A stretch of 64,000 bases of DNA, from the NCBI GenBank assembly GCA_963707915.1, contig OY970178.1, positions 1,344,001 through 1,408,000 on the forward strand, read 5' to 3'. The notes below the pieces were generated by a model. That model saw only the letters and a program-made list of their open reading frames with translations. It was not told the origin of the DNA and ran no database searches. Source of the stretch: Candidatus Eiseniibacteriota bacterium (lineage in GTDB: Bacteria > Eisenbacteria > RBG-16-71-46). Positions 13,717 through 32,948 of this stretch are shown here, piece by piece. The position numbers were made by a program, and so were the translations under genes. Every line of letters starts with the position of its first letter. Within the stretch, counting starts at the first letter, position 1.

Positions 13717-13767
13717 GGCTCTCTCTCCTCCCTGGACGGCGACCACGTACCAAGTCAGACTGGCTGG

Positions 13768-13915: not shown

Positions 13916-14743
13916 TCAGGGCAGCAGGACCACGCGCCGGGACGTGACCCGGTCCCCGGCTTCGAGCGTGACCAGGTAGACGCCCGCCGACAGGCGCCCG
14001 CCGGCGTCGTCACGGCCGTCCCACGGCACGGTCCGCGAGCCGGCGGCGCACCAGCCGTCCGCCAGTCGGCGGACGGTGCGGCCCTGGACGTCGCGCACGG
14101 TGAGGCGCTGGATGCCCGCGCGGTCCGCACCCACCTCGAAGCGCAGGGCGCCCCGGCCCGGGTTGGGCACGGCGCCCAGCGCGAGAGGCGGCACCGCCCG
14201 GTCGCCGACCCCGGCCGGGGCCGCCACGCCGACGCCGACCAGGGCGCCGGTGGCGTGGACCGGTTTCACGTACATCCCGGCCCGGTAGAACTGCAATGCG
14301 ACGATCTGCACCGTGGTCACCTGCGGGGTGTCCGCGGCCCGGAAGCGGAGCCGGTACAACGGGCCCGGCCCGGGGAGATAGACGCCGTCGCACAGCAGCG
14401 CGTCCGAGATGGTGTCGGTGCTCGCGCCCCGGCCGAAGACGTGGAAGGTGCTGCCGCACGCCTCCTTCATGTACGAGCCTTCCTGGAGGGAGAACGGCGA
14501 GAGCGGTACGAAGGTCAGCGCGGCGGGGTCCCACGAGACGACGGCCCGGAACGCGTTGAAGAGGTCGCCCGCCTCGGTGCATTGCAGGACCAGTTCGAAC
14601 TCCGCCCCCGGAGCGACGGTCTGCCCGGTGGGAAGCAGCGCGGCCGTCACGCCGTCGGCGCGGAGGGCGGCCGGAGCAGCGCACAGCCCGGCCGCGGCCG
14701 CGAGCGCGACCGCGATCGCCCTTCGGAACCGTGCCAGCGCCAT
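13916..14743 (-). CDS. Secreted cohesin-like domain + FlgD Ig-like (T9SS-CTD-like) protein
   Basis: Signal peptide; VAPGAEFELVL...VSWDPAALTF...LYRLRFRA cohesin-like pattern; C-terminal PNP...DVQGRTVRRL...WDGRDDAG...GVY. Paralog of 29248-30108. Confidence 0.75.
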   Translation of the reverse strand: MALARFRRAIAVALAAAAGLCAAPAALRADGVTAALLPTGQTVAPGAEFELVLQCTEAGDLFNAFRAVVSWDPAALTFVPLSPFSLQEGSYMKEACGSTFHVFGRGASTDTISDALLCDGVYLPGPGPLYRLRFRAADTPQVTTVQIVALQFYRAGMYVKPVHATGALVGVGVAAPAGVGDRAVPPLALGAVPNPGRGALRFEVGADRAGIQRLTVRDVQGRTVRRLADGWCAAGSRTVPWDGRDDAGGRLSAGVYLVTLEAGDRVTSRRVVLLP

Positions 14744-14806
14744 GGCTGCCTCCCGTCGGCCCCCGCGGGCCCGCGCGCCTCGCGCGCCGCGCCCGCGGCC
14801 GGCCCG

Positions 14807-17800
14807 CTACCTGAGATACGTCAGCGTCCGCGTGAATCCACGCTGCGCGGCCCTCAGGCGCACGTAGTAGACCCCCGCCGACATCGCGTGGCCCCGCTCA
14901 TCGCGACCGTCCCAGGTCACCCGGTATTCGCCCGGCTCGCGGGACTCCCGCACCAGGGTCCTCACCCGCCGCCCGTCCACCGAGAAGACCGCCAGCTCGA
15001 CCGGCCCGCCCTGGGCCAGGCTGAAGGCGATCGCCGTGGCCTCGCGGAACGGGTTCGGCGCCGCCGGGGCCAGCTGGGTGACCGTCGGCAGCGCCCTCGG
15101 CACGCGCAACGACGTGGCGAGGCTCACCGGTCGGTTCCGCGCATCGCGCGCGTCGACCGAGGCCAGCCGGATCTTCGGATCGCCGGCGGCGAGGGCGCGG
15201 AAGGTCACCGTGGCGGCCACGCCGTCGCCCCGGAATCCCGCACCCGGGCCGAGGACCGCGGCGTCCACCGCCCCGGGCGCGGCGGACAGCACCAGCGCGC
15301 CCAGGCTCCCGGCCAGCTCGCCCGCCCCCCAGCCCACCGGCGTCACCACGGCGGGATCCCACGCCAGCCTGGCCGCCAGGCACTGCACCGCGCCGGTGCC
15401 GCGCATCCGCAGGCCCACCTGCACGTCCCCGCCCTCCGCGACGCGGTCCACCGTCTCGAGCATCAGCTCGTCGCGGTCCGCCGCGACCGGCAGCGCGGAG
15501 GCCTGGGGCGCCGTGACGCGAGCGAAGGTCATCGCGAATACCACCAGGTCCTCGAAGTCCAGGATGTTGTCGGTGGTCGGCAGCGTGTTCGCCGAGTAGT
15601 CGGCGGTCGGTCCGACGTCCAGCGCCGTGTACCGGGAGCCCGCGACCAGCGTCGTCCCGTAGTGGGCGCCGAGCAGGGAGACGTCGGCGACGTCCACGCG
15701 GTCGTCCCCGGCGAGCAGCGAGTCCGCCGGGTCCACCACGTCGCCGAGGTGGTAGTTGAGCGTGCCCGTGGTCATGTTCGACACCGCCGAGTGCGAGCCG
15801 TACCGGTCGGTCACGACGGCGACGTAGTAGTAGAAGTCACGCAGCGGGACCAGGTCGTCGTGCGACGTGCCGGGCGACGCGACCGCGGCCGCGCGCGTCC
15901 AGCGTCCGGCCGGCGGATACGCCGTCGGCAGCGGCGGCACCGAGCCCGGGACGGGCCCGTCGTCGTACTCCGGGTAGTTGCCGAACCCGGCCCGGTAGAT
16001 CTCGACCGTGTCGCCCTCCCCCACCGCCGGCCAGGCGATGCCGATCGCCGTGGTGCTGCCCGGGGCGTTGCCGGTCTTGCGCTGTGTCGCGGTCAGCAGG
16101 GTGATCCCCGGCACCGCCGGGTTCACCGCGAAGGTCACCCGGATGGCGTGGTCCGCCCGCACGTCCGCGACCGTGTAGGGGCTCGCCGGGCCGACCGGGA
16201 CACCGTCCACCAGCAGGCTGTCGAGGTGGTACCCGGCGTCCGCGGTCGAGGTGAACGCCTGGCTCCCGCCGTACTCCACCGCCACCGCTCCGCCGGGGGA
16301 GATCGAGCCGTGGGCCCCCGCGCTCGCCGTGATGGTGAAGACGTCGATCGCGAACGTGGCGTGGAGGGTGTGGTCGGTGGTCACGTGGGTGAACGTGTAG
16401 CCCGTCGCCGGCGCCACCGGGCTGCCGTCCACGAAGAGGCTGTCGAGGTGGTACCCGGTCGCGGGCGTGATGGCGAAGCCGCGGTCCGCGCCGTAGTCCA
16501 CCGGCACCAGCCCGGCCGGGTCGATCCCGCCGTTCGGTCCGGCGCTCGCCGCGATGGTGAACACGTCGATCGCGAACGTGGCGTGGAGGGTGTGGTCGGT
16601 GGTCACGTTGGTGAACGTGTAGCTCGTCGCCGGCGCCACCGGTGCGCCGTCCACGTAGAGGCTGTCCACGTGGTAGCCGGTCCCCGGCGTGAGGGCGAAG
16701 CCCAGGCTGGAGCCGTGCGCCACGGTCACCGGGCCGCTCGGGTCGATCGCCCCGTGGGCCCCCGCGCTCGCCACGATCGAGTAGTAGTTGATGGCGAATG
16801 TCACGTGGATCGCGTGTCCGGCCTGCAGGTCGGTGAACGTGTAGCCCGGCGCCGGGGCGACCGGCACGCCGTCCACGTACAGGCTGTCCACGTGGTAGCC
16901 GGTCTCCGGCGCGAATGCGAAGGCCTGGTCCTCGCCGCGGGTGACGCCCACGGTCCCCGCCGGGCTGATGCCGCCGTGGGGACCCGCGGTCGCGGTGATC
17001 GTGAAGTCGTTGACCGCGAACGTCACGTGGATGGCGTGGCCGGCCGTCACGTTCGTGAACGTGTGACTCGTCGCCGGGGCGACCGGCACGCCGTCCACGT
17101 ACAGGCTGTCCACGTGGTAGCCCGCATCCGGCGTCAGCGTGAAGCCCTGGTCCGCGCCGTGGTCCACCGTCACCGGCCCGCTCGGGTCGATCGCACCGTG
17201 CGCCCCGGCGCTCGCCATGATCGTGTAGGTGTCGATCGCGAAGGTGGCGCGGATGGAGTGGTCCGCCGTCACGTTCGTGAACGTGTGACTCGTCGCCGGG
17301 GCGACCGGCACGTCATCCACGGTGAGGCTGTCCACGTGGTAGCCCGACGAGGGGCTGATCGCGAACCCCTGGTCCGCGCCGTAGTCCACCGCGACCCCCC
17401 CGCTCGGGTCGATCGTCCCGTGCGCGCCCGCGCTGGCCGCGATCGTGAAACGGTCGATGGCGAACGTGACGCGCACGGCGTGGTCGGACTGCACGTCGGC
17501 AAGCGAGAAGGGCAGCACCACCGGCACCGGGACGCCGTCCACGGTCAGGCTGTCCACGTGGTAACCCGGGTCCGGCGTGATCGTGTAGGGCTGGGTCGCG
17601 CCGTGCTCGACCGAGGCGCTCGGCGGGGCGATCGAACCGTGCGGACCCGCGGTGGCGGTCAGCGAGTAGAGCCCGATCGTGAAGTCGGCGTCGCTGGCGT
17701 CCGTGGCCGAGTTGCCATTCACGTCGTGCGCGGTCACGCGCACGCGGACCGTCGTGGAGAGCGTGTTCGGCACCGTCCAGAGGTGGGAGCCGGAGTTCGC

Positions 17801-20746
17801 GATGCCGGTCGCGATGGCGGCCGTGTAGCTCGCGCCGCCGTCGGTCGAGTAGGCCAGGTCCACGCTCCCCACGCCGGCGTCGTCGGTCGCGGTCCACGTG
17901 ATGCTGTGTGGCGAGCCGACGGCCCAGGACTGCCCGCCGTTCGGCGCGGTGACCGTCACCGCCGGGGCCGAGTGGTCGATGCGCACCTCGGCCGCGGTCC
18001 CGACCGCCGCCGGCAGTTTCGAGTCGTCGCAGGTGCCGAGCGACCAGCGCAGCACCGTGACGGTGTCCACCGCGCTCGCGGCCGCGCTCGACAACGCCAC
18101 GTCGAACAGCGTGGCGAGCGCCTGGTCGGAGCCGCACGGGCCGGCCACGACCGCGCCGTCCGCGCGGTACAGCCCGCCGCCGAGGTCGGTGGCCTGGAAG
18201 CTGGTGGTGCGCCCGCCGCCGGCGAGGAAGTCCCCCTCGGTGATGCTGCCCACGCCCGCGGGCAGGGCCAGGTGCGAGGAGAGCCGGAACGTCACGCTGA
18301 AGGTCCGGGCCAGGCTCGCGCCGCTCCGCGAGACCCGGACGGGCACGGTCACGGTCGGGTGGTCCGGCGAGATCGTGGTGGGCGGGGCCACCGCGTCCGC
18401 CGTGGCCGCGGGCTCGTCCACCATGAACGTCGCCCGGATGCTGTGGGCTTCGGTCACGCCCGTGAACCGGTAGGTCGTGTCCGGCGCGACCACCGTCCCG
18501 TCCACGACCAGGCTGTCGACCTGGTAGCCCGCATCCGGGGTGATGGCGAAGGCCTGGTCCGCCCCGTGAGGCACCGCCACGGACGGCGACGGGCTGATCG
18601 CGCCGTGGGCGCCCGCGCTCGAGACGACCGGGTAGGTGTTGATGGCGAAGGTGGCCCGGATCGTGTGGGGCGCGGTGACGTTCGTGAACGTGTAGGTGCT
18701 CTCCGGCGTCACCGGCGATTCGTCCACGTAGAGGCTGTCCAGGTGGTGGCCCACCGCGGGCGTCATCGTGAACACGATCGATCCGCCGTTCACCACCGAG
18801 ACCTCGCCCGCGGGATCGATGGTCCCGTTCGGGCCGGCGCTCGCCGTGATGGTCCGGCCGGTGGTCTGGCCGATGGCGAAGTCCCCGAACCCGTCGGCTC
18901 CCAGCACCTGCGTGCTCGTGGAGGCCCGCGTCCCGACCGCCGGGTACGACCAGGCGCCACCCTCGCGCCGGCCGACGATGAAGATCCCGGGGTCGGCACC
19001 CCCCTGCAGGTCGCCGCCCGTGAAGTGGAAGGTCGCGTCGTAGGGCCCGGTCACGCCGCCGCTCAGCAGCGTCCAGGCGCGCTTCACGTACCGGGCCTGG
19101 CTGATCATCGAGGAGGCGAGGTCCGGCGGCACCTCCGCCGCGACCCCGACCGTGAGGTCGCCCGCGCCCGTGCCGTCGCCGAAGGTCAGCTCCACCGGCG
19201 TGTAGTCGGTCGCGTCGCCGATCTCGAACACCGGGACCGAGGCCCCCGCGGGCACCGCGCGCTGCAGTCGGCCGACGACGTAGCCGCCGCCCGAACGCGT
19301 GAGGCTCGAACCGGCCGGCAGGATGACCTTGTTGCCGCCGGTCGTGATCCGGCCCGCGCCGAGGGCCAGCGTGCCGTTGACGGTCAGGTCGCCGGAGCCC
19401 AGCGCCATCCCGCCGCCGTCGAACGTCAGGTTCCCGGGCACGGTCCGCGGAGCGTCCGGCAGGGTCACCACGCCCTGCTCGACCACGACGTGCTGCGGGA
19501 CGCCCGCGCCGGCGGCGCCGCCCGCTCCGCTCCACTCGGGTCCCACGGCGGTGCCGCCCGGCGCGTTGTAGACCAGGTTCGAGTTCCCGCCGTAGGTCGG
19601 CGCGACGGCGAGCGAGCCGCCGGTGTCGATCCGGAGCGTGCCGTTGACCGCGGTCGTCCCGCTGTTCGTCAGCGGGGCCGCGATGGCCAGCAGGGCGCCT
19701 TCGTTCACGGTCGTCGTGCCCGGCAGGGTGAGCGCGCTCTGGACGAAGACACCGCCGGGATTGCCCACCGTGACGTTCGCGAGACCGTTGAACGTGAGCG
19801 TGCCGCCGTTGGAGACGGTCTGCGCCGAGGTCCCGCCCAGGGAAATCGCGGCCGCGGCGGTCGGGTTGAAGTCGAGAGTCGCGCCCGGGGCGACGGTGAG
19901 GTCCCCCTTGATCACGACGCTCAGGAGCTGCAGGTGCGCCGCCCCCGAGGTCATCGTGAAGTTGTCGCAGGTGAAGGGGGGCGTCCCCGTCGAGATCCGG
20001 TTGTACGCCGCGAAGTCGATCTCGAAGTCCGCGCAGGCGCGGTTGGCGAAGCTGGGGGCGGAGTTCTGCCGGAACGAGAACAGGCTCCCGCTCTGGAAAT
20101 TGACCTTCGAGTTGGGCGCGGAGAGCCCGTAGGGATTGGCGCCCGCCAGCTGGATGAACGACGAGCCCGAGGTGAACAGGATGACGTTCGCCGTCCCGGA
20201 ACTGGTGAAGACGTTGCCGGTGCAGCCGATCCCCTGGGTGAACGTCGCGCCGCTGCCGAACTGGATGGCGCTGACGCTGGCCGCGTCGAGCTTGTGGGGG
20301 CCGCCCGAGAAGGTCATCGCCCCGCCGACGGCGCCGGTCGCACCCGCGGAGAGCGCGAGGGTGAGCACGGTCGCGCCGCTCACGTTGAGCTGCGTGCCGG
20401 CCGGCACGGACAGGTCGGTTCCCGGCCCGCCGGAGATGGTGAGCACGTTGGTCGCGCCCGCCTGGAGGGTCACCGCCGAGCCGTTGGACACGAGCAACTG
20501 CTGGATCGACAGGGCCGGGACCGCCGTCACGGTGAACGTGCCGCCGCTGCCGAACTGGACGACGTCGCCTGCCGCCGGGGCCCCGCTCGGAGTCCAGTTC
20601 CCGGCCAGGGTCCACGCGCCGCCGCCGGCGTTGTTCCAGCTCTTCGTGGCCGCCCCGGCCGCGGCGCCGAACGCGACGCTGAGGGCCGCCATGAGGCCGG
20701 CGATGACCGCCAGCCGGGTTCCGAAACGACTCGCCGAGGTGTTCAC
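14807..20746 (-). CDS. Large secreted surface protein: beta-helix-like N-terminus, 9 InlB-B/Flg_new-like repeats, Ig-like, cohesin-like, dockerin-like and FlgD-Ig domains
   Basis: GTG start at 20746 with GGAGG RBS. Signal peptide; SWNNAGGGAW...NWTP; G/T/N-rich beta-helix pattern; 74-aa repeats; YPEYDD; GDV..VDVADVSLLG; PNPF...WDGRDE tail. Confidence 0.85.
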   Translation of the reverse strand: MNTSASRFGTRLAVIAGLMAALSVAFGAAAGAATKSWNNAGGGAWTLAGNWTPSGAPAAGDVVQFGSGGTFTVTAVPALSIQQLLVSNGSAVTLQAGATNVLTISGGPGTDLSVPAGTQLNVSGATVLTLALSAGATGAVGGAMTFSGGPHKLDAASVSAIQFGSGATFTQGIGCTGNVFTSSGTANVILFTSGSSFIQLAGANPYGLSAPNSKVNFQSGSLFSFRQNSAPSFANRACADFEIDFAAYNRISTGTPPFTCDNFTMTSGAAHLQLLSVVIKGDLTVAPGATLDFNPTAAAAISLGGTSAQTVSNGGTLTFNGLANVTVGNPGGVFVQSALTLPGTTTVNEGALLAIAAPLTNSGTTAVNGTLRIDTGGSLAVAPTYGGNSNLVYNAPGGTAVGPEWSGAGGAAGAGVPQHVVVEQGVVTLPDAPRTVPGNLTFDGGGMALGSGDLTVNGTLALGAGRITTGGNKVILPAGSSLTRSGGGYVVGRLQRAVPAGASVPVFEIGDATDYTPVELTFGDGTGAGDLTVGVAAEVPPDLASSMISQARYVKRAWTLLSGGVTGPYDATFHFTGGDLQGGADPGIFIVGRREGGAWSYPAVGTRASTSTQVLGADGFGDFAIGQTTGRTITASAGPNGTIDPAGEVSVVNGGSIVFTMTPAVGHHLDSLYVDESPVTPESTYTFTNVTAPHTIRATFAINTYPVVSSAGAHGAISPSPSVAVPHGADQAFAITPDAGYQVDSLVVDGTVVAPDTTYRFTGVTEAHSIRATFMVDEPAATADAVAPPTTISPDHPTVTVPVRVSRSGASLARTFSVTFRLSSHLALPAGVGSITEGDFLAGGGRTTSFQATDLGGGLYRADGAVVAGPCGSDQALATLFDVALSSAAASAVDTVTVLRWSLGTCDDSKLPAAVGTAAEVRIDHSAPAVTVTAPNGGQSWAVGSPHSITWTATDDAGVGSVDLAYSTDGGASYTAAIATGIANSGSHLWTVPNTLSTTVRVRVTAHDVNGNSATDASDADFTIGLYSLTATAGPHGSIAPPSASVEHGATQPYTITPDPGYHVDSLTVDGVPVPVVLPFSLADVQSDHAVRVTFAIDRFTIAASAGAHGTIDPSGGVAVDYGADQGFAISPSSGYHVDSLTVDDVPVAPATSHTFTNVTADHSIRATFAIDTYTIMASAGAHGAIDPSGPVTVDHGADQGFTLTPDAGYHVDSLYVDGVPVAPATSHTFTNVTAGHAIHVTFAVNDFTITATAGPHGGISPAGTVGVTRGEDQAFAFAPETGYHVDSLYVDGVPVAPAPGYTFTDLQAGHAIHVTFAINYYSIVASAGAHGAIDPSGPVTVAHGSSLGFALTPGTGYHVDSLYVDGAPVAPATSYTFTNVTTDHTLHATFAIDVFTIAASAGPNGGIDPAGLVPVDYGADRGFAITPATGYHLDSLFVDGSPVAPATGYTFTHVTTDHTLHATFAIDVFTITASAGAHGSISPGGAVAVEYGGSQAFTSTADAGYHLDSLLVDGVPVGPASPYTVADVRADHAIRVTFAVNPAVPGITLLTATQRKTGNAPGSTTAIGIAWPAVGEGDTVEIYRAGFGNYPEYDDGPVPGSVPPLPTAYPPAGRWTRAAAVASPGTSHDDLVPLRDFYYYVAVVTDRYGSHSAVSNMTTGTLNYHLGDVVDPADSLLAGDDRVDVADVSLLGAHYGTTLVAGSRYTALDVGPTADYSANTLPTTDNILDFEDLVVFAMTFARVTAPQASALPVAADRDELMLETVDRVAEGGDVQVGLRMRGTGAVQCLAARLAWDPAVVTPVGWGAGELAGSLGALVLSAAPGAVDAAVLGPGAGFRGDGVAATVTFRALAAGDPKIRLASVDARDARNRPVSLATSLRVPRALPTVTQLAPAAPNPFREATAIAFSLAQGGPVELAVFSVDGRRVRTLVRESREPGEYRVTWDGRDERGHAMSAGVYYVRLRAAQRGFTRTLTYLR
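16125..17670 (-). repeat. Seven tandem 222-bp (74-aa) coding repeats; two further copies at ~18420-18855
   Basis: Consensus FTIxASAGxHGxIxPxGxVxVxxGxxQxFxxTPxxGYHVDSLxVDGxPVxPATxYTFTxVTxxHxIxxTFAI. An identical ~45-bp block occurs at 16341 and 16563 (offset 222). Confidence 0.9.
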
Positions 20747-20878
20747 AGAGCCTCCAGGAGACACGGCTCCCTGCCGGGACGACGCAGGAACCTGCTCGCT
20801 TCGATCGTTCACTTCTCCACCCTGGGTGCCGCCGTCGATGCGCCCCCGGAGACTCCGTCGCGCCCCGGGGGCCCGGTC

Positions 20879-23800
20879 CTATTCCACCCGCACGAGCGTC
20901 CGCGTGAAGCGGCCGTCCGGCGTGATCAGTCGTGCGTAGTACAGGCCGGGCCTGACGGTCCGGCCGCGGTCATCGGTTCCCGTCCACACGGGCCGGTACG
21001 TGCCCGCCTCCATCGTCGCGCGCGACAGCGTGCGCACCCGGCGGCCGTCCACGGCGAAGATCGCGAGTTCCACCGGCCCGGGCCGGGCCAGGCTGAACGC
21101 CAGCGTCGTCGCGCCCCGGAACGGGTTCGGCGCGGCGGCCGCCAGGGCGGTGGCCACGGGCACGGGCTCGGCCGGCCGGCCGTGGCCCAGGCTGGTCTTG
21201 CGGTTTCGCAGGTCGCGGGCGTCCACCGAGGCGATGGCCACACCCGGCGCCCCGGCGGCCAGGGCGCGGAACGTCACGGTCGCGAGCACGCCCGTCCCCG
21301 CGAGCCCGCGTTCCCGCGCGCCGATCAGCGCGGCGTCCACGACCCCGGGCCTCCCCGAGAAGACCACCCCACCCTGCGCTTCGACGAGCGCGCCGGGGCG
21401 GACCCCGAGCGGCTCCGCGATGCGGTGGTCCCAGTCGAGACGCGCGGAGAGGCCCCGCAGGTTGCCGGCCCCGGCGATGCGAAGACTGGCGACGAACACC
21501 TCCCCCGCCGCGACCTGGGTCGGTGCCAGCAGCGTCACCTCGTCGCGCTCGGCCGGCGCCGGACCGGCCTGCGGCTCGGGAGCCTGGTTGAAATTGGTGG
21601 TGAACAGCATGAGGTCCTCGAAGTCGAGCGAGTTGTCGGTGAGCGGAAGTCCTTCCTCGCTCCCGTCGCTCGTGGGCCCCACGTCGAGGCAGCCCAGCGA
21701 GTCGCCGGGCGCCAGGGCCGCGCCGTAGCGGCTGCCCAGCAGCGACAGGTCCTCGGCCCACACGCGGCCGTTCCCTTCGCACCGGGTCACGCCGTCCGAG
21801 ACGTCGCCGAGGGTGTAGCCGAGCGTTCCCGTGGTCAGGGCGGGCAGCGACACGGCGCCGCACTCGTCCTGCACGAAGACCGCGTAGTACCAGAAGTCGC
21901 GCATCCGCGGGTCGTCCTCGTAGGCGGTGCCGCCCGGCAGGCTGGCGATCTGGACCCAGCGCTCCTCGGGCGGCCACGAGGGCACGGCCGGGGCCGAGCC
22001 GCCGGCGTCGTCGTACTCGGGGTAGGCGCCGAAGCCGGTGCGGAACAACTCGATCGTCTTCCCGCTGCCGGGCGCGTCCCAGCTGACCGTGACCTTCGAC
22101 GTGCCGCCGCCGGTGCCCGGGGCCTGCTGCGTCGCGACCAGTCCGCTGACCGGGGCGGGGCGCACGTTCTCGATGACGATGGAACCCGCCGGGCCCGCGT
22201 CCGCGGCGACCGCGCGGTTGTCGCAATCGCGCAGGGCGACCGCGACCGGGGTCACCGTGCCGGTGCCGCTGACGGCGTCGCTCGCGAGGTGGAGCAGGAA
22301 CAGGGTCCCGCTCGACGCGGTCGGCCCGCAGGGCGGGCCAAGGATGACGCCGTCGACGGTGACCAGGCCGCCGCCCAGGTCACGGACCTGCAGCGAGCTC
22401 GCGGGGTTGAAGGAGCCGAAGTAGCCGCCCTCGCTGACCCGCGCGCCGCCGAGCCGCAGGTTCGCGGAGAGCTGCAGTCTCACGCTGAACCCGATCAGCG
22501 GCTCGGCCGTCGTCCGCTGGATGAGCACCGGCATCGCCACGCAGGAGTCCGTGGCGGTGAGGCAGCCCGCGGGCGGCCCGAGCGTCACGGGATTGTCGGG
22601 CGGCAGGATGGGGACCGTGACCATGCCCGGCGACGCCACGCGGCAGGGGATGCCGTCGTTGGCGCAGTCGCGCATCGTGACCGACGAGAGGGTGACGCGG
22701 CCGATGCCGCTGCTCGAATCGCTCGCCAGGCGGAGGGTGAAGAGCGTCCCGCCGGAGGCGGTCGCGCCGCAGGGCTCGCCGAGGATGGCGCCGTCGATGC
22801 TGTAGACGCCGCCGCCCCGGTCCACGACGCCCAGCTGAACGTTGGGATTGGCACCGCTCAGGTAGCCGCCCTCCTCCGCGCGCGCGCCGCACAGGCGCAG
22901 CGACGCGGACAGACGCACGGTGGCGCTGAAGCCGAGCACCGGCTCGGCCGAGGTGCGCTGGATCGTCACCGGCACGCTGACGCAACCGGCCTCGGGCGTG
23001 ATCGACCCGGAGATCGGGCCGAGGGTCACGGGGTTCGCCATCGGTGGCGGCGCGGCGTTCAGCAGCACCGTCACGGTGTTGGTCGAGAAGCAGGCCACGA
23101 CCAGGTCCTCGCCCTGGTCGTCGTTCACGTCCGCGGCCACCACTGAGCGCGCGTAGGTGCCCGCGCCGTACGCGGTCTTGGGAGCGAAGGTGCCGTCGCC
23201 GTTGCCCAGGAACACCGAGACCGAGTTCGACTGCTCGTTCGCCACGACCAGGTCGGGGTGGCTGTCCCGGTCGAGGTCCTTGACGATGACCGACTGGGGG
23301 AAGAGCCCCGCCAGGTGGTCGGTGCGCGGCGCGAAGGTCCCGTCGCCGTTGCCCAGCAGCACCGAGACCGAGTTGGTGCCGCGGTTGGCCACGGCCAGGT
23401 CGAGCCGCGCGTCGCCGTCCAGGTCCGCGATCGCCACCGAGTAGGGCTGCCCGCCGGTGGCGAAGTCGGTCTTCGCCTGCAACGTGCCGTCGCCGTTGCC
23501 CAGCAGCACCGAGACCGTGTTGGAGCTGCTGTTCGCGACCACGACGTCGGGCTTCCCGTTCCCGTCCAGGTCGCCGACCGCCACCGCGAAGGGATCCGGG
23601 CCGGTGGCGTGGTCGGTCCGCGCACGGAACGTGCCGTCGCCGTTGCCGGGCAGCACCGAGACCGTGCCCGCGCCGCGATTGACGACCACCAGGTCCGGCC
23701 AGCCGTCCCCGTTCAGGTCGCCGGTCGCCACGCACATCGGGCTCGTGCCGACCGCGAAGTCGCGCCGGGGCGCGAACGAGCCGTCGCCGAGGCCGAGCAG

Positions 23801-25210
23801 CACGGAGACCGTGGTGGCGCCCCGGTTGGCGATCGCCAGGTCGAGCCGGCCGTCCGCGTTGAAGTCGCACAGCGCCACGCTGACGGGATTCACGCCGGTG
23901 GCGAAGTCGGTCTTCGGCGCGAAGGTCGCGTCGCCGTTGCCGAGCAGGACGGAAACGGTGCTGGCGCCGTAGTTCGCCACCACCAGGTCGGGGGTCCCGT
24001 CCCGGTTCAGGTCGCCGCTCACCACCGCCCAGGGATCGGCCCCGGTGGCAAGATGCCGCTGCACGCCGAACGTCCCGTCGCCGTTGCCGTGCAACACCGC
24101 GACCGTGGCGAAGTCCCAGGTGAACCAGTCGCTCACCGCGAGGTCCGCGTCCCCGTCGCCGTCCAGGTCGCCAATGGCCAGGGCGTTGGGCTGGTTCCCG
24201 GCCCGGTAGTCGGCCCTCGCGGCGAAGGTCCCGTTGCCACGCCCGAGCAGGACCGAGCTGGTGTTCGCGGAGTAGTTCGCGGTCGCCAGGTCCAGGCTGC
24301 CGTCGTGGTCGAGGTCGGCGACCGCCACGGCCTGCGGGTTGGCGCCGACCGCCTGGCTGGTCCTTGGGCCGAAGGTCCCGTTGCCGTTGCCGAGCAGGAC
24401 CGAGACCGTGGACGGCGAGGCGTTCGCCACCGCCAGGTCGAGACGCCCGTCCCCGTTCAGGTCGCCGAGCGCCAGCGAGCGCGGCGCGGCGCCCACGCTG
24501 ACGTCGGTCTTCGGCTGGAAGGTCCCGTTGCCGTTGCCGGGCAGCATCGAGACCGTGCCCGCGCCGCTGTTGGCGACCAGCAGTTCGGGGTTCGTGTCCC
24601 CGTTCAGGTCGCCGATCGCGACCCACATCGGGGTGGCCCCGGCCGCGTACTGGGTCCGGGCCGCGAAGGTCCCGTTGCCGTTCCCGAGCAACACCGAGAC
24701 CGAGTTCGTCCCCCGGTTGGTGACCGCCACGTCCAGTCGCCCGTCGTGGTTGAGGTCGGCCAGCGCGAGGTGCTGGGGGTACGAGCCCGCGGCGTAGTCC
24801 GTCTTCGCGCGGAACGTGCCGTCCCCGTTGCCGAGCAAGACCGAGATCGTGTGGACGGAGTAGTTCGTGACGACCAGGTCCGCGCGGCCGTCGCCGTCGA
24901 GGTCGCCGATCGCGACCGTCTGGGGGTTCCGGCCGGTGGCGAAGTCGGTCCTCGCGCCGAACGACCCGCCGCCGTCACCGAGCAGAACCGAGATCGCGTC
25001 CGAGTTGTAGACGCTCACGGCCAGGTCGGGGTGGCCGTCGCCGTTCAGGTCGCCGATCGCGACGGAGGAAGGGCTGCGGCTGACGTCGAATGGCAGGAAC
25101 GGCGCGTCGAACAGCACCCCGGCACGAACGGGGAACGCAGCGAGCAGGAGCATGGCCCCGGCCACGAGCGCGGCGCTTCCATGGGAAGCCGGCCCCCGAT
25201 CCGCTCTCAT
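20879..25210 (-). CDS. Secreted FG-GAP/VCBS repeat protein with two cohesin-like, dockerin-like and FlgD-Ig domains
   Basis: Signal peptide; 14 x GD(L/F)NGDGxxDL repeats; tandem NPVTLGP...EGGY...ILG.PCG.TAS.GTLF domains; YPEYDD; PNPF tail. GAGG RBS before ATG 25210. Confidence 0.85.
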   Translation of the reverse strand: MRADRGPASHGSAALVAGAMLLLAAFPVRAGVLFDAPFLPFDVSRSPSSVAIGDLNGDGHPDLAVSVYNSDAISVLLGDGGGSFGARTDFATGRNPQTVAIGDLDGDGRADLVVTNYSVHTISVLLGNGDGTFRAKTDYAAGSYPQHLALADLNHDGRLDVAVTNRGTNSVSVLLGNGNGTFAARTQYAAGATPMWVAIGDLNGDTNPELLVANSGAGTVSMLPGNGNGTFQPKTDVSVGAAPRSLALGDLNGDGRLDLAVANASPSTVSVLLGNGNGTFGPRTSQAVGANPQAVAVADLDHDGSLDLATANYSANTSSVLLGRGNGTFAARADYRAGNQPNALAIGDLDGDGDADLAVSDWFTWDFATVAVLHGNGDGTFGVQRHLATGADPWAVVSGDLNRDGTPDLVVANYGASTVSVLLGNGDATFAPKTDFATGVNPVSVALCDFNADGRLDLAIANRGATTVSVLLGLGDGSFAPRRDFAVGTSPMCVATGDLNGDGWPDLVVVNRGAGTVSVLPGNGDGTFRARTDHATGPDPFAVAVGDLDGNGKPDVVVANSSSNTVSVLLGNGDGTLQAKTDFATGGQPYSVAIADLDGDARLDLAVANRGTNSVSVLLGNGDGTFAPRTDHLAGLFPQSVIVKDLDRDSHPDLVVANEQSNSVSVFLGNGDGTFAPKTAYGAGTYARSVVAADVNDDQGEDLVVACFSTNTVTVLLNAAPPPMANPVTLGPISGSITPEAGCVSVPVTIQRTSAEPVLGFSATVRLSASLRLCGARAEEGGYLSGANPNVQLGVVDRGGGVYSIDGAILGEPCGATASGGTLFTLRLASDSSSGIGRVTLSSVTMRDCANDGIPCRVASPGMVTVPILPPDNPVTLGPPAGCLTATDSCVAMPVLIQRTTAEPLIGFSVRLQLSANLRLGGARVSEGGYFGSFNPASSLQVRDLGGGLVTVDGVILGPPCGPTASSGTLFLLHLASDAVSGTGTVTPVAVALRDCDNRAVAADAGPAGSIVIENVRPAPVSGLVATQQAPGTGGGTSKVTVSWDAPGSGKTIELFRTGFGAYPEYDDAGGSAPAVPSWPPEERWVQIASLPGGTAYEDDPRMRDFWYYAVFVQDECGAVSLPALTTGTLGYTLGDVSDGVTRCEGNGRVWAEDLSLLGSRYGAALAPGDSLGCLDVGPTSDGSEEGLPLTDNSLDFEDLMLFTTNFNQAPEPQAGPAPAERDEVTLLAPTQVAAGEVFVASLRIAGAGNLRGLSARLDWDHRIAEPLGVRPGALVEAQGGVVFSGRPGVVDAALIGARERGLAGTGVLATVTFRALAAGAPGVAIASVDARDLRNRKTSLGHGRPAEPVPVATALAAAAPNPFRGATTLAFSLARPGPVELAIFAVDGRRVRTLSRATMEAGTYRPVWTGTDDRGRTVRPGLYYARLITPDGRFTRTLVRVE
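23060..25100 (-). repeat. Fourteen ~49-aa (147-bp) FG-GAP repeats, probably two 7-bladed beta-propellers
   Basis: Counted 14 DxDxDG-type motifs, most followed by SVLLGNGDGTF. Confidence 0.85.
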
Positions 25211-25313
25211 CGATCCTCGCCCAGGTGTCGTCACGGTGAGCCAGCGGCCATCCGATCGGCCGACCCCGACCGCGCCGGGCCCGGCCGGCGGGAAGGGTTT
25301 GCCACTCCTTCAC

Positions 25314-25319
25314 ATTATA
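25314..25319 (-). promoter_or_regulatory. Perfect -10 hexamer (TATAAT) upstream of the FG-GAP gene
   Basis: ATTATA on the plus strand in an otherwise GC-rich intergenic region; no clear -35. Confidence 0.45.
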
Positions 25320-25329
25320 CACCAGGGGG

Positions 25330-25357
25330 GGCGGGTCCCGGATTCCCGGGACCCGCC
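25330..25357. terminator. Perfect 12-bp-stem hairpin downstream of the 25389-28313 gene
   Basis: GGCGGGTCCCGG-ATTC-CCGGGACCCGCC. There is no U-tract on the minus strand, so the terminator role is uncertain. Confidence 0.45.
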
Positions 25358-25388
25358 TTTCCCATGTCTCCGATTCGAGGCAGCCCGT

Positions 25389-28313
25389 CTACCGGGTCAG
25401 GACCAGGGTGCGAGTGAAGCGGCCCTCCGGCGTCGTCAGCCGCGCGTAGTACAGCCCGGGCTGCACGCCCGCGCCGTCCCAGCTCAGCCGGTAGTTGCCG
25501 GCCGCCTGCACCCCGCTCGCCAGCGTCGCCACCTTCCGCCCGTCCACCGAGTACACCGCCAGGCTCACCGCCCCGCCCTTCGCCAGCGCGTAGCTCAGCA
25601 CCGTCGACCCGCGGAACGGGTTCGGCGTCGCCGGCGCGAACTGCGTCGCCAGCGGCGCGCCCGGCACCACCGGCTTCGTTCCCGCCAGTTCCACCGGCCG
25701 GTTGCCCAGGTCACGCGCGTCCAGCTTCGCCAGCACCACCGCCGGCGCGCCGTTCGCCAGCGCCCGGAACGTCACCGTCGCCAGCACGCCCTCGCCCGCC
25801 AGCCCACGGTTCGCTCCCAGCCGCGCCACGTCCACGTTGCCCGCCCCGCTGCTCAACACCACCCCGTCCTGCTCCGTCGCCAGCGCCCCCGCCACCACCG
25901 ACACCGGCTCGGCCACCGCCGCGTCCCAGCCCAGTTGCGCCGAGATCCCCTGCAGGTCCCCCGCGCCCCGCATCCGCAGGCTCACCGCGAACGTCGTCCC
26001 GGCCGCCACCTTCGCCGGGCCCTCCAGCCACAGCTCGTCCCGCGCCACCTGCGGCGACGCCCCCGCCGCCGGCACCCCCTGCGGCGCCGACACCTGCCCG
26101 TGGTTGATCGCGAACATCATCAGGTCTTCGAAGTTGACCTTGTTGTCCGTCGTCGGCCGCGCGTTCACCGAGTAGTTCGTCGTCGGACCCACGTCGAGGC
26201 AGTTCCAGCCCGCCCCGGGCGGGACCACCGCCCCGTAGTGCGCGCCCAGGAAACTGATGTCCGCGATGTCCACCACGTTGTTCCCCGCGCAGTCCGCCAC
26301 GCTGTTGTGCACGTCTCCCAGGTGGTAGTTCAGCGTCCCGCCGGTCTGGTTCGACACCGCCGAGACGTTCCCGCAGCCGTCCTCCACGAACGCCACGTAG
26401 TACCAGAAGTCACGCGCCGTGGTCTCGTCGTCGAACACCGCCACCGGCGCGGTCAGCGTCGCCGCCAGCGTCCACGCCCCTCCCGGCGGGTACGCCGGGG
26501 TCGCCGGCACCCCGCCACCCACGTCGTCGTACTCCGGATAGTTGCCCCAGCCCGCCCGGTACAGGTGCACCTTGGCCGCGTCCGCGGGGGCGGTGAAGGT
26601 CAGCCGCACCTTCGTCGTCCCGTCCCCGTCGTTCCCTGTCCTCACCTGCGCCGCCGCCAGGTTCGCGATCGCCGCCGGTGCGGTGTTGTCGATGGTGATC
26701 GTCGCCGCCGCTCCCGGGATCCCCGCCACCGGCGCGTTGTCCACGTCGCGCACCGTCACCGAGTTCACCGTCACCGTGCCCGTGCCGGTCACCGCGCCGG
26801 CCAGGTTCAACGTGAACAGCGTCCCCGAACCGGTCGCCCCGGCGCTCCCGCCCAGGATCGCGCAGTCCACCGTGTAGACCCCGCCCCCCAGCGACACCAC
26901 CGGCCCGAACTGGGTCGGGCCCACCCCGCTCAGGTAGCCGCCCTCGACGATCCCGCTGCCGCACAGCGCCAGGCCGCCGCCCAGCGTCAGCGTCACGCTG
27001 TAGCCCCGCACCGGCGTCGTGTCCACCCGGTCGAAGTTCACCGGCACCGCCACGCACGCCAGCGCCGGCGTGATGCACGTCGCCGGCGGCTGCGGAGTGA
27101 CCGCGTCCCCCGTGAGCAGCGCCTGGACGACCTCGGCCGAGACCTCGGGGTACTCGCCGCTGCCGTCGTCCACGACGCCGCTGGCCTGGGGGAGCGCCAA
27201 CAGCCACTGCTGGCCCAGGAAGGCGGCGTGCATCGCGATCGGGTCGTCATGACGCTTCGCATACTCGCCCAGCGCCAGCACCGCGTAGGCGGTCGTCTGC
27301 GCGTCCTGCCCGTAGAAGCTGCCGCCGTACGACAGGCCCCATGAGCCGTCGGCCAACTGGCCGTTCACGAGCGTGTCCCGAATGGCGGTGGCCAGGGCGT
27401 CGTCGTCGGTCCGCTGCGACGCATCGAAGACCCGCAGCGCCCCGGCGAGGCCGGTCTGGTGGTAGTTCTGCGCGAAGTCCGACGGGTTCCAGCCCCCCGG
27501 GCCCAGGAGCCCGTTCATGTCGTCCATGAGCACCTGGGAGACCGAGTCCACTTCGGCCTCGTAGGCGGCGGCAGCGCCCGGGAAGGCCAGCGCGAGCGCC
27601 TTCGAGTCGTTCGAGAGCATATGGATGTCCCAGGGCCACATGCCGGAGAGACCCTGGCTGCGGCGGCCCAGACAGACCGTGCGCGCCCGGCCGCCGGCAC
27701 CGCCACGCACGAGGAGCTCGGTGTCGTGCCGGACCTTGATGGTGTCCTTGAGCGCGGCGTTCCCGGTCTTGCCGGCCCAGCGGATGTAGGCCGTGGCGAC
27801 GTCACCGTCCCAGATGCGGAAGTACGGAGTGCCGAGCAATCCCAGGCCGGTCTTCGAGATGCCGGCGAAGACGTCGCTCGTGCCGATGCCGAGGCGCACG
27901 TCACCGGTGAAGATGGCGGCATCGGCAAGACCGCGTCCGATCGGCCCGTAGAGGTTCTCGTACGAGGCGCCGGCCGGATGCCACGTGGCGCCCGTCGTTT
28001 CCCAGTCCCAGCCGCCGTCGTCGGCATCCGAGTCCCCGGGGTCGGCGCCATTGCCGGCGTTGTCGCTGGTGACGTCGGCCTGGAGGTCCACGAGGCGGTT
28101 GCCGACGGCGAGCGCCGCGGCGACCGGGTCGGTGAAGAAGCCGGCCGTGCTCGTCGCACCCAGCGGCGCGAGCCTGAGCGCATCCGCGGGCGCGCGCGAG
28201 GCGTCCGGAACGCCCGGGTAGGGGACGGCGCGCGGGGGGGCTGCATGCGCGAGCGTGACGAAGGCGCAGGCGAGGAGTACCAGGAGAATCGGGAAGAATC
28301 CGGTGCTTCTCAT
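25389..28313 (-). CDS. Secreted protein: alpha/alpha-toroid (prenyltransferase/squalene-cyclase repeat-like) N-terminus plus cohesin-like/dockerin-like/FlgD-Ig cassette
   Basis: AAAGGA RBS before ATG 28313. Signal peptide; DDGGWDW, QLADGSWG, TTAYAVLAL and QWLL motifs; shared C-terminal cassette with YPEYDD and PNPF. Confidence 0.75.
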   Translation of the reverse strand: MRSTGFFPILLVLLACAFVTLAHAAPPRAVPYPGVPDASRAPADALRLAPLGATSTAGFFTDPVAAALAVGNRLVDLQADVTSDNAGNGADPGDSDADDGGWDWETTGATWHPAGASYENLYGPIGRGLADAAIFTGDVRLGIGTSDVFAGISKTGLGLLGTPYFRIWDGDVATAYIRWAGKTGNAALKDTIKVRHDTELLVRGGAGGRARTVCLGRRSQGLSGMWPWDIHMLSNDSKALALAFPGAAAAYEAEVDSVSQVLMDDMNGLLGPGGWNPSDFAQNYHQTGLAGALRVFDASQRTDDDALATAIRDTLVNGQLADGSWGLSYGGSFYGQDAQTTAYAVLALGEYAKRHDDPIAMHAAFLGQQWLLALPQASGVVDDGSGEYPEVSAEVVQALLTGDAVTPQPPATCITPALACVAVPVNFDRVDTTPVRGYSVTLTLGGGLALCGSGIVEGGYLSGVGPTQFGPVVSLGGGVYTVDCAILGGSAGATGSGTLFTLNLAGAVTGTGTVTVNSVTVRDVDNAPVAGIPGAAATITIDNTAPAAIANLAAAQVRTGNDGDGTTKVRLTFTAPADAAKVHLYRAGWGNYPEYDDVGGGVPATPAYPPGGAWTLAATLTAPVAVFDDETTARDFWYYVAFVEDGCGNVSAVSNQTGGTLNYHLGDVHNSVADCAGNNVVDIADISFLGAHYGAVVPPGAGWNCLDVGPTTNYSVNARPTTDNKVNFEDLMMFAINHGQVSAPQGVPAAGASPQVARDELWLEGPAKVAAGTTFAVSLRMRGAGDLQGISAQLGWDAAVAEPVSVVAGALATEQDGVVLSSGAGNVDVARLGANRGLAGEGVLATVTFRALANGAPAVVLAKLDARDLGNRPVELAGTKPVVPGAPLATQFAPATPNPFRGSTVLSYALAKGGAVSLAVYSVDGRKVATLASGVQAAGNYRLSWDGAGVQPGLYYARLTTPEGRFTRTLVLTR

Positions 28314-28692
28314 GGAACGTGTCCTTTCACGCGGCCACGCCGCAGGGCATGCGGCCCTGGGCATGCGGCCCCGCTCTGGAGGTGGGACGACGCTCCGCGC
28401 ATCGGGACTGCCGGTACAACTGCGATCGGGGGGCCACAGGTGAGGCCGGACCTTCGGAACGATCGCGGAGCGATTCAAGGCGAAATAGGGTCAGCGCTTC
28501 CCGGGGGGCGACCTCGGGACCACATCGGTGGCGATCCTGTGGCACATGGGGTACGGCCTCCCACAACGACGGGCACCTTCTGCGTCGGGCGTCGGGGCCA
28601 TAGCGGGGGACGGATGTGAATCCAGGGCCCTCGACCATTCGACCCGCGGGGTTCCGGAGCGATCCGGACAGGTCGAAGTCATGCGAATCCGG

Positions 28693-29229
28693 TCAACGGT
28701 AGAGCGTCTTGACCCTCCCCCAACTCGCCACGCGCGCGGGCGTGGCGGCAATGATGTGCACGATCCCGCCGGTGCAGTCCGGCAGCGTGATGGCGTTGTC
28801 CGAATCGCGGAAGTCCGCTTCGATGCACGGCACCGGGGCTTCCCCGACCGAGACCGCCTTGAAGCGGAAGGACACCAGGACACCGGGCCCCGCGGTCGAG
28901 CCGGTCAACACGGCCGCGTCGTAGAGGACCGAATCCGCGCCCGCACCCGGCGTCACGATGACGTAGTCCGTGTACGGCCTGCCCGTGCCCGTCAGCACGC
29001 CTCCCGCGTCGGCGCCGAGGAACTGCAGCTTCGCCGGATCGAATTGGAACCGGAGGTGGAACCCCTTGAGGTCCTCGAAGGCGTCGGTCACGATCCGCAG
29101 TTCGAGCTCGTCCCCGACGTAGACGCTGGTGTCGGCGGGCGACATGCCGACGGTGACCGCCCGGGCGGGCGCACCGGGGAGCACCACGAAGCAGAGCAGG
29201 ATGAGGACGACCCGCGGCAGATGCTTCAT
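28693..29229 (-). CDS. Small secreted cohesin-like protein with C-terminal SWGRVKTLYR motif
   Basis: Signal peptide (...PARA-VTV); VGDELELRI...FQFDPAKLQF...GVLVSFRFKA; terminal ASWGRVKTLYR. Confidence 0.75.
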   Translation of the reverse strand: MKHLPRVVLILLCFVVLPGAPARAVTVGMSPADTSVYVGDELELRIVTDAFEDLKGFHLRFQFDPAKLQFLGADAGGVLTGTGRPYTDYVIVTPGAGADSVLYDAAVLTGSTAGPGVLVSFRFKAVSVGEAPVPCIEADFRDSDNAITLPDCTGGIVHIIAATPARVASWGRVKTLYR

Positions 29230-29247
29230 TGCGGCCTTCTCTCGAGG

Positions 29248-30108
29248 CTAGGGCAACAGGACGACCTTCGCGACGGCGCTCGCACCGGGGGATCCCACCA
29301 GCACTCGGTAGACGCCGGGCGCGAGCCTGGTCCCGGCGTCGTCTCGTCCATCCCAGGCGATGCGCCGCGTGCCCGGCGCCGTCGCCCCGTCCTCGAGGTG
29401 CCGCACCGTGCGGCCCTGCACGTCACAGACGATGACCCGCTGCCAGCCGGCGGCCGCGGTCTCGACGAACACGGTCGCGGCCGCCCGGCACGGGTTCGGG
29501 GTCACCCTCAAGCGGGTCTTCCCGGGAGGGGCTCCGGAACCGGGCACTCCCACCGGGACCCCCATCGCGATCGCCGCGTCGGAGGAATGCGAGGGGTTCA
29601 CGAAGAATCCGGCGTTGTAGAACTGGATGTTCCGGATGCTCACCGAGGTCCACTGGGGCGGACCGGAGGAGCGGAAGCGAAGCTTGTAGAGCTGGCCGGG
29701 ACCCGGCAGGAAGAGGCCGTTGCACAGCAGCGAGTGCACGATCACGAGCGAGTCGGCGGCAGTCGTGAAGTTGTGGCTCGTACTCCCGCACGCCGTCTTC
29801 ATGTACGCGCCCTCCTGCAGGGAGAGCGGTGAGGTCGGGAGGAGCGTGAGCGCCGCGGGGTCGTACGCGATGGTCGCGACGTAGGCGTTGAAGAGGCTGC
29901 CGGCCTCGGTCACCTGGAGCTCGAGGGTGAACTCGCTGCCGGGACTCACGTACGCCGAGTCGGGAAGGACGGCGACGGTCACACCCGAGGCGTTCGCGAT
30001 CGCGTGCGGCAGGCATGCCAGCAGCAAGGCCGCGACCCAGCCGAGCACCGGCGGGGAGCCGCGTGGATGCACCTTCGCCCGGAAGTCGTTCGCGCGCTCC
30101 ACCGTCAT
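29248..30108 (-). CDS. Secreted cohesin-like + FlgD Ig-like protein (paralog of 13916-14743); start uncertain
   Basis: GVTVAVLP...PGSEFTLELQVTEAGSLFNAY...YDPAAL...SLQEGAYMKTACGST...LPGPGQLYKLRFR; PNP...WDGRDDAG tail. Confidence 0.75.
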   Translation of the reverse strand: MTVERANDFRAKVHPRGSPPVLGWVAALLLACLPHAIANASGVTVAVLPDSAYVSPGSEFTLELQVTEAGSLFNAYVATIAYDPAALTLLPTSPLSLQEGAYMKTACGSTSHNFTTAADSLVIVHSLLCNGLFLPGPGQLYKLRFRSSGPPQWTSVSIRNIQFYNAGFFVNPSHSSDAAIAMGVPVGVPGSGAPPGKTRLRVTPNPCRAAATVFVETAAAGWQRVIVCDVQGRTVRHLEDGATAPGTRRIAWDGRDDAGTRLAPGVYRVLVGSPGASAVAKVVLLP

Positions 30109-30416
30109 CTCGAGCGGGAACGCGCTGACGTCACGTCCCCTGTTGGAGTCGAGTAGCTGGACACGCCCGGGGCCGGTCGAATCCGGACCGGGCGGCCACC
30201 AGTTCCCTCGAAGACAAGCTCGAATCCGCGGGGCGCAGGAAGCTCCACGAACCTGGGGGAGGAACGCAAACAACCATACGGCCTGAGCCGTGGCCGTTCA
30301 AGCAATGATTCCGCCGTCTCCCATCGGAGGCACCGCCTACCTGACCGTGGCACCCCGTGCCGGCCGGGCGACCGTGCCTGCGTCGCGGGAACGATCACGC
30401 CGGGCGCGGCCCCGGG

Positions 30417-32948
<2,532 letters not shown>

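Follow-up and report, generated by a model that had tools for sequence, protein, structure and literature searches.

Cohesin-dockerin pairs are known above all for holding clostridial cellulosomes together, and they are widely used as tools in protein engineering. In the type II cohesin/X-dockerin pairs (2y3n, 4u3s, 2b59 and 5k39), a dockerin made of two loop-helix halves follows a packed beta-sandwich module, and single cohesin modules sit on cell-surface anchoring proteins, clostridial anchors being of the SLH or sortase type. Such modules also serve outside cellulose degradation, as in NagH and NagJ of the Firmicute Clostridium perfringens (2ozn), where they link secreted glycoside hydrolases, and a survey by Peer et al. 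from 2009 reportedly dealt with non-cellulosomal cohesin-dockerin modules. For Candidatus Stygibacter (Cloacimonadota), a cellulosome-like system has been inferred in which a C-terminal domain (CTD) anchors the cohesin scaffoldin, a protein of 3,755 amino acids (aa) with tandem cohesins and carbohydrate-binding modules, and in which separate enzymes (GH18, GH57, S8 and C25) carry dockerins detectable by Pfam (PMC8542988). Here we describe a cluster of six genes, designated A to F by ascending coordinate, at positions 13916-30108 of a 64,000-nucleotide stretch (hereafter the window; contig OY970178.1, positions 1,344,001 to 1,408,000) from a Candidatus Eiseniibacteriota bacterium. The three large proteins of this cluster (B, C and D) end in one shared tail that contains cohesin modules and a dockerin-like module, and the three small proteins (A, E and F) each contain a single cohesin. 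We lean, with moderate confidence, towards reading the cluster as a non-cellulosomal cohesin-dockerin assembly system that is exported by a type IX-like route.

The cluster resembles the type II pairs in that, as modeled, its dockerin-like module (DocL) has two loop-helix halves and follows a beta-sandwich module that may pack on it, and its single cohesin modules would likewise belong to cell-surface anchoring proteins. Chains of the type II pairs are among the best structural matches of DocL, and the profiles of two of the cohesin classes defined below (Coh2 and CohE) match ScaB cohesins. The differences from these pairs are that the organism is of the Gram-negative type with a type IX secretion system (T9SS) CTD as the anchor, that the dockerin loops are longer and are missed by the Pfam Dockerin_1 model, and that plug and socket lie in one chain, in a fixed tail, with no enzyme cargo seen. 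NagH/NagJ are similar in their use of the modules outside cellulose degradation, and chain 2ozn_B is the top match of DocL in our fold search, whereas that system is without a T9SS CTD, a fusion of FN3, dockerin and cohesin modules, or socket-only neighbor genes. Compared with Ca. Stygibacter (PMC8542988), cohesin and dockerin are here part of the same fused tail, carried by adhesin-like proteins, and Pfam does not detect the dockerin. New relative to these known systems are therefore the invariant fused FN3-Doc-Coh-CTD tail, the long-loop dockerin that is invisible to Pfam, the adhesin-like cargo and the socket-only neighbor genes. Among the papers listed in our literature search, none was found to link Eisenbacteria or Krumholzibacteriota with cohesin or dockerin.

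Because the window has a G+C content of 72%, long open reading frames (ORFs) occur on both strands, and real genes were chosen by their third-position G+C content, which is 0.87-0.96 in the six genes. All six lie on the minus strand between serA/serC and lon, in the transcription order lon, F, E, D, C, B, A, serA, serC. An earlier note, made from the sequence alone, had described them as six co-oriented genes with signal peptides, and this description is borne out: the range extends from the stop codon of A to the ATG of F, and each protein begins with a putative signal peptide (a basic N-region, a hydrophobic stretch and an A-x-A-like site, judged by eye). The same note had claimed that the large proteins combine unrelated N-termini with a common C-terminal cassette. 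In agreement with this, the last ~520-580 residues of B, C and D are common to all three at 43-49% identity (BLASTP among the six proteins), the same method aligns A and F with the C-terminal ~250 residues of the large proteins, and all of the motifs that it quoted are present.

Alignment and our own hidden Markov models (HMMs) place the modules of the tail in the order CohL1, FN3 module, DocL, Pro/Ala-rich linker, Coh2 and CTD, where CohL1 and Coh2 are cohesin classes, the FN3 module carries the invariant motifs G-x-Y-P-E-Y-D-D and R-D-F-(W/Y)-Y-Y, and the linker between DocL and Coh2 measures about 8-16 residues in the window. The contiguous order given in the earlier note fits D, which has one CohL1; it requires amendment for C, which has two CohL1 copies in tandem, and does not hold for B, in which the single CohL1 is set apart from the remaining tail by an Ig module and eight InlB-type B-repeats. 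Its description of the small genes as signal peptide, cohesin and sorting tail is likewise correct in part: A and F, paralogues with 51% identity (BLASTP), consist of a third cohesin class (CohS) and a CTD only, and E has a fourth (CohE) and no CTD, ending in SWGRVKTLYR in place of a FlgD-Ig/T9SS tail. Genome scans with Pfam Cohesin and with our own HMMs placed all cohesin and DocL modules of the genome in this cluster, with DocL in three proteins only.

By sequence criteria the cohesin modules are real, as indicated by Pfam matches, profile matches to solved cohesins and profile-profile links, and the cohesin-like modules proposed in the earlier note are thereby substantiated. Relative to the Pfam Cohesin (PF00963) gathering score of 24.1 bits, Coh2 of D (32.9 bits) and the cohesin of E (26.2 bits) scored above the cut-off, and Coh2 of C passed in the genome scan (25.8 bits) and scored 22.8 bits in the whole-protein scan; all three matches of the genome scan were inside this cluster. 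F (17.9 bits), A, Coh2 of B and every CohL1 were below the cut-off or gave no match to this model. The cut-off was passed at the Coh2 position by 29 of 92 relatives, which were drawn (every third, taken twice) from the best 150 cluster representatives found with the tail. Among solved structures, the Coh2 profile (34 modules) matched 3l8q_A (5.7e-8) and 2vn5_A (1.4e-5) and the CohE profile (10 modules) matched 3l8q_A (1.3e-10). The CohL1 profile retrieved no cohesin from the PDB, its sole matches being two fimbrial chains (E 0.15), and the whole tail of D had no match among PDB sequences at E<=10. Profile-profile comparison with hhalign connected the four classes (CohE-Coh2 98.8%, CohL1-CohE 95.8%, CohS-Coh2 95% and CohL1-Coh2 80.9%).

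DocL comprises 88 residues in two similar halves, each consisting of a loop and then a helix with (H/N)-Y-G at its end (consensus LGDV...GDNxVxxxDISxLGAHYG and LDVGPT...TDNxxxFEDLxxFAINYG), and the two halves align with each other (E 1e-4, 58% probability, 22 columns). The AlphaFold (AF2) model of DocL, built from 55 sequences, has a predicted local distance difference test score (pLDDT) of 85.4, with helices at residues 29-38 and 74-82. In a VIA all-against-all fold search of 48,161 representative chains, 15 chains reached Z>=2 and all 15 are dockerins, the top match being 2ozn_B (Z 6.2, root mean square deviation (rmsd) 1.9 over 53 residues). Foldseek returned 17 matches to the same model, of which 16 are dockerin chains (the best with E 0.049 and a probability of 0.97), and a VIA re-check of these gave a Z of 7.8 for 2y3n_B, with an rmsd of 1.8 over 58 of its 60 residues. 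Since the specificity of these fold searches is striking despite modest scores, we interpret DocL, on the evidence of its model, as a diverged dockerin fold with long loops. DocL of C, of D and of many relatives contains two Cys residues, one within the first long loop and the other immediately ahead of L-D-V-G-P-T (B has Leu and Ala at these places), and in some copies a disulfide may staple the two halves together.

A model of the FN3 module and DocL together (B residues ~1560-1768, 50 sequences) reached a pLDDT of 93.2 and a predicted template modeling score of 0.89, and the confidence of DocL rose from ~85 when folded alone to about 92-96 when folded with the FN3 module. These values are what a rigid two-module unit would be expected to give, and they are reminiscent of the type II X-dockerin dyads. 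The FN3 module with the YPEYDD motif has in itself an unremarkable FN3 fold, matched by many FN3 domains at Z 8.5-7.4; the earlier note had named generic Ig/FN3 folds as an outcome that would speak against its proposal, and this outcome applies to the YPEYDD module only. The fold search with the two-module model gave lists taken up by FN3 domains, in which residues 132-209 were barely compared and no solved X-Doc chain was among the matches listed.

The tail represents a real and widespread variant of cohesin-dockerin systems. With the FN3-DocL-Coh2 stretch of D as the query, 1,213 cluster representatives were found at E<=0.001 and 399 at E<=1e-30, which puts the tail in at least 399 protein clusters, and a second search found 542 proteins at E<=1e-20. 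Of the best 150 cluster representatives, to which all architecture counts refer, 107 have the order CohL1-FN3-DocL-Coh2-CTD, 30 have FN3-DocL-Coh2-CTD, nine have a doubled FN3 match or CohL1 and four are truncated; the ending DocL-Coh2-CTD is present in 146 and at least one CohL1 in 116. The cassette was also counted across the phylum, as the earlier note had suggested, in a sample of 151 genomes that includes one unpublished genome (G015). DocL was present in 79 of these genomes, with 1-9 copies each, and CohS in 74, and the two co-occur: CohS was found in 73 of the 79 genomes with DocL vs one of the 72 without it. The tally of the CohE profile (73 of 151 genomes) is unspecific because this profile cross-matches Coh2 and CohS; at E<=1e-27, CohE was found in 36 genomes, 35 of which have DocL.

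The clustering of the genes is also conserved in relatives, as the earlier note had expected. We collected 43 related loci, almost all from metagenome-assembled genomes (MAGs) labeled Candidatus Eisenbacteria or Krumholzibacteriota. One of these (L006, 71% identity) has the identical gene order F-E-D-C-B. Of 42 related loci, 28 have a small cohesin gene no more than 6 kb away from a DocL gene; among the 28 loci whose downstream sequence extends for 3 kb or more, 20 have such a gene nearby. For six diverged loci (L036, L038 and L040-L043), gene fission, with dockerin proteins lacking Coh2 beside cohesin-CTD genes, was considered and rejected, as Coh2 is present in all six: in the stretch of 150-220 residues that follows DocL, the Coh2 HMM matches at 1e-5 to 1.5e-16, and hhalign gives 98.1% to alignment A5. 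Some tail-bearing contigs are labeled Bryobacterales (L010) or uncultured Fibrobacteraceae (L026 and L037), which could reflect a wider range, mis-binning or loose labels. A CohE-type cohesin is located N-terminally in larger CTD or full-tail proteins at L011:5365-7491, L024:7757-11296, G149:C134 and G127:C69, and the small socket thus occurs in fused form too in some relatives. The database names of relatives are 'hypothetical protein', 'T9SS type A sorting domain-containing protein', 'cohesin domain-containing protein', 'NosD' and 'FlgD'; for P0221 and P0177 the names 'flagellar hook assembly protein FlgD' and 'NosD' are misleading and derive from single-domain matches (CTD and beta-helix).

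The CTD is a C-terminal domain of ~85 residues with a PNPF-type start, as in T9SS type A cargo (TIGR04183 or Por_Secre_tail; processed by PorU), to which the earlier note had likened these FlgD-Ig/PNPF tails. This assignment gains support from A (23.6 bits) and D (31.4 bits), which pass the TIGR04183 cut-off of 23 bits, and from the presence in the genome of PorU (464.9 bits, cut-off 420) and SprA (501 bits summed, cut-off 200). Differences from type A cargo are that C (20.9 bits), B (19.8 bits) and F (12.9 bits) fall below the cut-off, that the CTD scores better as FlgD_ig (cut-off 27, passed by A with 38.6 bits, by B and by F), and that the motor genes are unconfirmed. E had no match to TIGR04183. 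The domain is abundant in the genome: the last ~90 residues of D have 66 matching places, and our own CTD HMM detected it in 83 ORFs. A T9SS-like export route, with its motor unconfirmed, is therefore likely on the sequence evidence.

The end of E is of a different type. The motif [ST]WGx[IVL]KxxYR stands at the very end of all ten aligned CohE homologues, and in the genome it is carried by 24 ORFs (E and 23 others), in each case as the last residues. Pfam, run on 20 of these 24 ORFs, found CBM_20 in one, LTD in three, NHL propellers in two and no family in 14. From its sequence distribution, this tail looks like a second class of C-terminal tag beside the T9SS-type CTD. The sole Dockerin_1 match of the genome, an ORF of 307 aa (C1:1781976-1782896, plus strand, locus L053; 19.1 bits, below the cut-off of 22.9), has the C-terminal tail TWGxxKxxYR and no Pfam family at E<=0.001.

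The proteins that bear the tail appear to be adhesin-like. The N-terminal part of B consists of beta-strand repeats (atlas lead 0.88) in addition to its InlB B-repeats, and the cargo of C is 13 FG-GAP repeats. The N-terminal domain of D matched no known family and gave weak alpha/alpha-toroid leads (atlas 0.76-0.83 to TED, prenyltransferase and GH88/GH127-like clusters; the cyclase 6vpt_A, E 0.0031; SQHop_cyclase_N, E 0.074), all atlas scores for the cargo of B and D being below 0.9. Across the 92 relatives, the cargo families were Beta_helix (11), He_PIG (10), Flg_new_2 (9), FG-GAP (6), Big_3_5 (5) and assorted propellers. Pfam detected no catalytic family of glycoside hydrolases, lyases, esterases or peptidases in the six window proteins (E<0.1) or in the 92 relatives (E<=1e-5); exceptions among relatives are a GSDH-type propeller in P0047 and PF01095 (pectinesterase) in the precomputed list of P0219. 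The statement of the earlier note that glycoside hydrolase domains are absent thus stands at the level of Pfam and is qualified by the toroid leads of D.

These cargo data bear on whether the cluster encodes a true cellulosome-like enzyme complex, with polysaccharide-active cargo on cohesin scaffolds as proposed for Ca. Stygibacter. Beta-helix cargo is common and could be carbohydrate-active, and many pectate lyases and hydrolases adopt the right-handed beta-helix fold; the PF01095 entry of P0219 and the GH88- and GH127-like clusters among the leads of D point in the same direction. Nevertheless, we regard such an enzyme complex as highly improbable, given the catalytic families that were sought and not found by Pfam in the six window proteins and the 92 relatives, a genome with no long tandem-cohesin scaffoldin and no separate dockerin-only enzymes, and the restriction of DocL to three proteins, the one sub-threshold Dockerin_1 match lying elsewhere. 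The system probably serves the assembly of adhesin-like surface proteins and not of an enzyme-carrying cellulosome.

In the assembly system that we favor, each large protein would consist of adhesin-like cargo and a fixed tail with one or more optional CohL1 sockets, the X-dockerin-like FN3-DocL plug, the Coh2 socket and the CTD. The small proteins would be socket-only parts, A and F with a cohesin and a CTD and E with a cohesin and the other C-terminal tag. Following Sec export, the CTD would route these proteins via SprA/PorU to the cell surface, where the dockerin of one protein would plug, possibly in a calcium-dependent manner, into the cohesin of another, either A or F or the Coh2 or CohL1 of a neighbor. 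Docking of this kind would tie the adhesin-like proteins into a multi-protein surface layer or into chains. Complex prediction with CohS of A, Coh2 of B, FN3-DocL of B and two calcium ions scored 0.73, 0.70 and 0.65 in three runs; exchanging the FN3-DocL partner for unrelated proteins gave 0.10 and 0.00, and keeping this partner while replacing CohS gave 0.77, so that with three chains the score may stem from the retained chain and speaks neither for nor against binding or a particular partner. We also considered a more far-reaching form of this assembly, in which the tail is a self-complementary plug-and-socket through which T9SS cargo forms head-to-tail polymers, either chains or a lattice, on the outer membrane; this would be an outer-membrane-anchored 'adhesin-some' specific to Eisenbacteria-type phyla, with A and F as primers or caps, E holding the plug before export and DocL as a new long-loop subtype. 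This form is speculative, and we think it rather unlikely.

Several observations weigh against an assembly system of either form, and the first group concerns DocL itself. None of 55 DocL modules matched Pfam Dockerin_1 (PF00404) at E<=10, this family was found in none of the 92 full-length relatives at E<=1e-5, and it is in none of 120 precomputed Pfam lists of relatives. Against solved structures, the DocL profile reached dockerin chains at E 0.16-0.5, values that are not significant and that ranked after two OmpC chains (E 0.11). The canonical EF-hand calcium loop has 12 residues in the pattern D-x-N-x-D-G-x-x-x-x-x-D; in DocL, acidic or amide residues are present at the loop positions read as 1, 5 and 12 (D13, D/N24 and D31 in the first half and D53, D69 and D76 in the second), and both halves have 9-11 extra residues between positions 2 and 5 that take them outside the canonical pattern. 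The fold-search scores are also modest, as is usual for such small domains, with no Foldseek match at E<=0.001 and every Z below 8. The dockerin-like segment of the earlier note is therefore upheld by its modeled fold, with dockerins as all 15 VIA matches, and not by the Pfam family.

The noncanonical calcium loops and the lack of Dockerin_1 matches would be expected if the cohesin- and dockerin-derived folds had lost their mutual binding and acted as structural spacers only, such that the tail merely extends T9SS cargo off the membrane, and the generic fold of the FN3 module would fit this explanation as well. We consider the spacer explanation improbable, since the tail is strongly conserved (DocL and FN3-DocL have a mean column identity of 54-57%, and D, G, P, T, Y and F occupy invariant positions among 50-55 copies), its architecture is constant across hundreds of clusters, and the co-occurrence of socket-only genes points to a specific interaction.

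A second group of observations concerns docking between different proteins. DocL and Coh2 invariably share a polypeptide, also at the most diverged loci, an arrangement that fits a pair acting in cis as well as it fits assembly in trans. Since every large protein carries a CTD, anchoring does not require docking. Furthermore, CohS was not seen in six of the 79 genomes with DocL, and a small cohesin gene is missing from the vicinity in eight of the 28 well-flanked loci. Since DocL and Coh2 do not occur separately, the main rival explanation is an intramolecular clasp, in which FN3-DocL binds the Coh2 of its own chain, the tail forms a rigid pedestal between cargo and membrane anchor, and the small cohesins compete, regulate, act as chaperones or do something else. 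Such a clasp would account for the covalent joining of DocL and Coh2 in fixed order (146 of the 150 best relatives), for the presence of Coh2 in all six diverged tails that had seemed to be without it, and for the individual CTDs of the large proteins, and the short linker could, from its presumed geometry, span the cohesin face. It leaves unexplained the co-occurrence of socket-only genes (73 of 79 genomes) and their adjacency to tail genes, as well as the extra CohL1 sockets of most relatives (at least one in 116 of 150). We view the clasp as possible, though doubtful; since cis and trans binding would share one interface, sequence data cannot tell the two apart.

A third group concerns export. 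The PorV-like ORF directly after PorU (locus C1:472003-476379) scored only 81 bits (cut-off 250). For the GldK/L/M/N (PorK/L/M/N) motor, the search covered GldK, with a weak match (85 bits, cut-off 350), and GldM, which was not found in the genome with a model that was silent in all control genomes too. This lineage seems to have a T9SS that is too diverged for models based on Bacteroidota.

The coordinates of the cluster and its flanks are collected in Table 1. A promoter-like site is present upstream of serA and, like the terminator-like hairpin listed in the table, represents a consensus match only.

Table 1. Genes, modules and flanking features of the cluster, in window coordinates
Feature	Coordinates	Strand	Description
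serC	11745-12833	-	NCBIfam score above cut-off
serA	12844-13746	-	short, PGDH-like; NCBIfam 249 bits, below cut-off 454
Gene A	13916-14743	-	275 aa; signal peptide, CohS-type cohesin, T9SS-type CTD
A, CTD	13919-14194	-	T9SS-type
A, CohS	14198-14662	-	cohesin
Gene B	14807-20812	-	2001 aa; N-terminal part of beta-strand repeats
B, CTD	14810-15091	-
B, Coh2	15131-15484	-
B, DocL	15512-15778	-
B, FN3	15767-16138	-
B, Ig module and 8 InlB B-repeats	~16139-17725	-
B, CohL1	17975-18418	-	aa 801-944
Gene C	20879-25234	-	1451 aa
C, CTD	20882-21163	-
C, Coh2	21200-21556	-
C, DocL	21578-21841	-
C, FN3	21830-22186	-
C, CohL1, two copies	22169-22609 and 22610-23050	-
C, FG-GAP/VCBS repeats	~23135-25072	-	13 repeats
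Gene D	25389-28478	-	likely ATG 28313; 974 aa from likely start; listed protein of the window also 974 aa
D, CTD	25392-25658	-
D, Coh2	25698-26051	-
D, DocL	26088-26351	-
D, FN3	26340-26705	-
D, CohL1	26688-27119	-
D, N-terminal domain	27114-28241	-
Gene E	28693-29229	-	178 aa; signal peptide, CohE-type cohesin
E, C-terminal SWGRVKTLYR	28696-28725	-
Gene F	29248-30108	-	286 aa; signal peptide, CohS-type cohesin, CTD
F, CTD	29251-29526	-
F, CohS	29533-29994	-	cohesin
Terminator-like hairpin	30278-30297	-	after lon, before gene F
lon	30417-32948	-	TIGR00763, 907 bits (NCBIfam)

Hundreds of adhesin-like proteins carry the tail described here; by record titles they belong to the uncultured phyla Eisenbacteria and Krumholzibacteriota, and to our knowledge phyla of this type have no cultured members. 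If the modules bind in the proposed manner, the tail would represent a new way to build a surface protein layer on the outer membrane and would add a new family of orthogonal plug-socket pairs, and it would also provide a handle on the cell-surface biology of these phyla.

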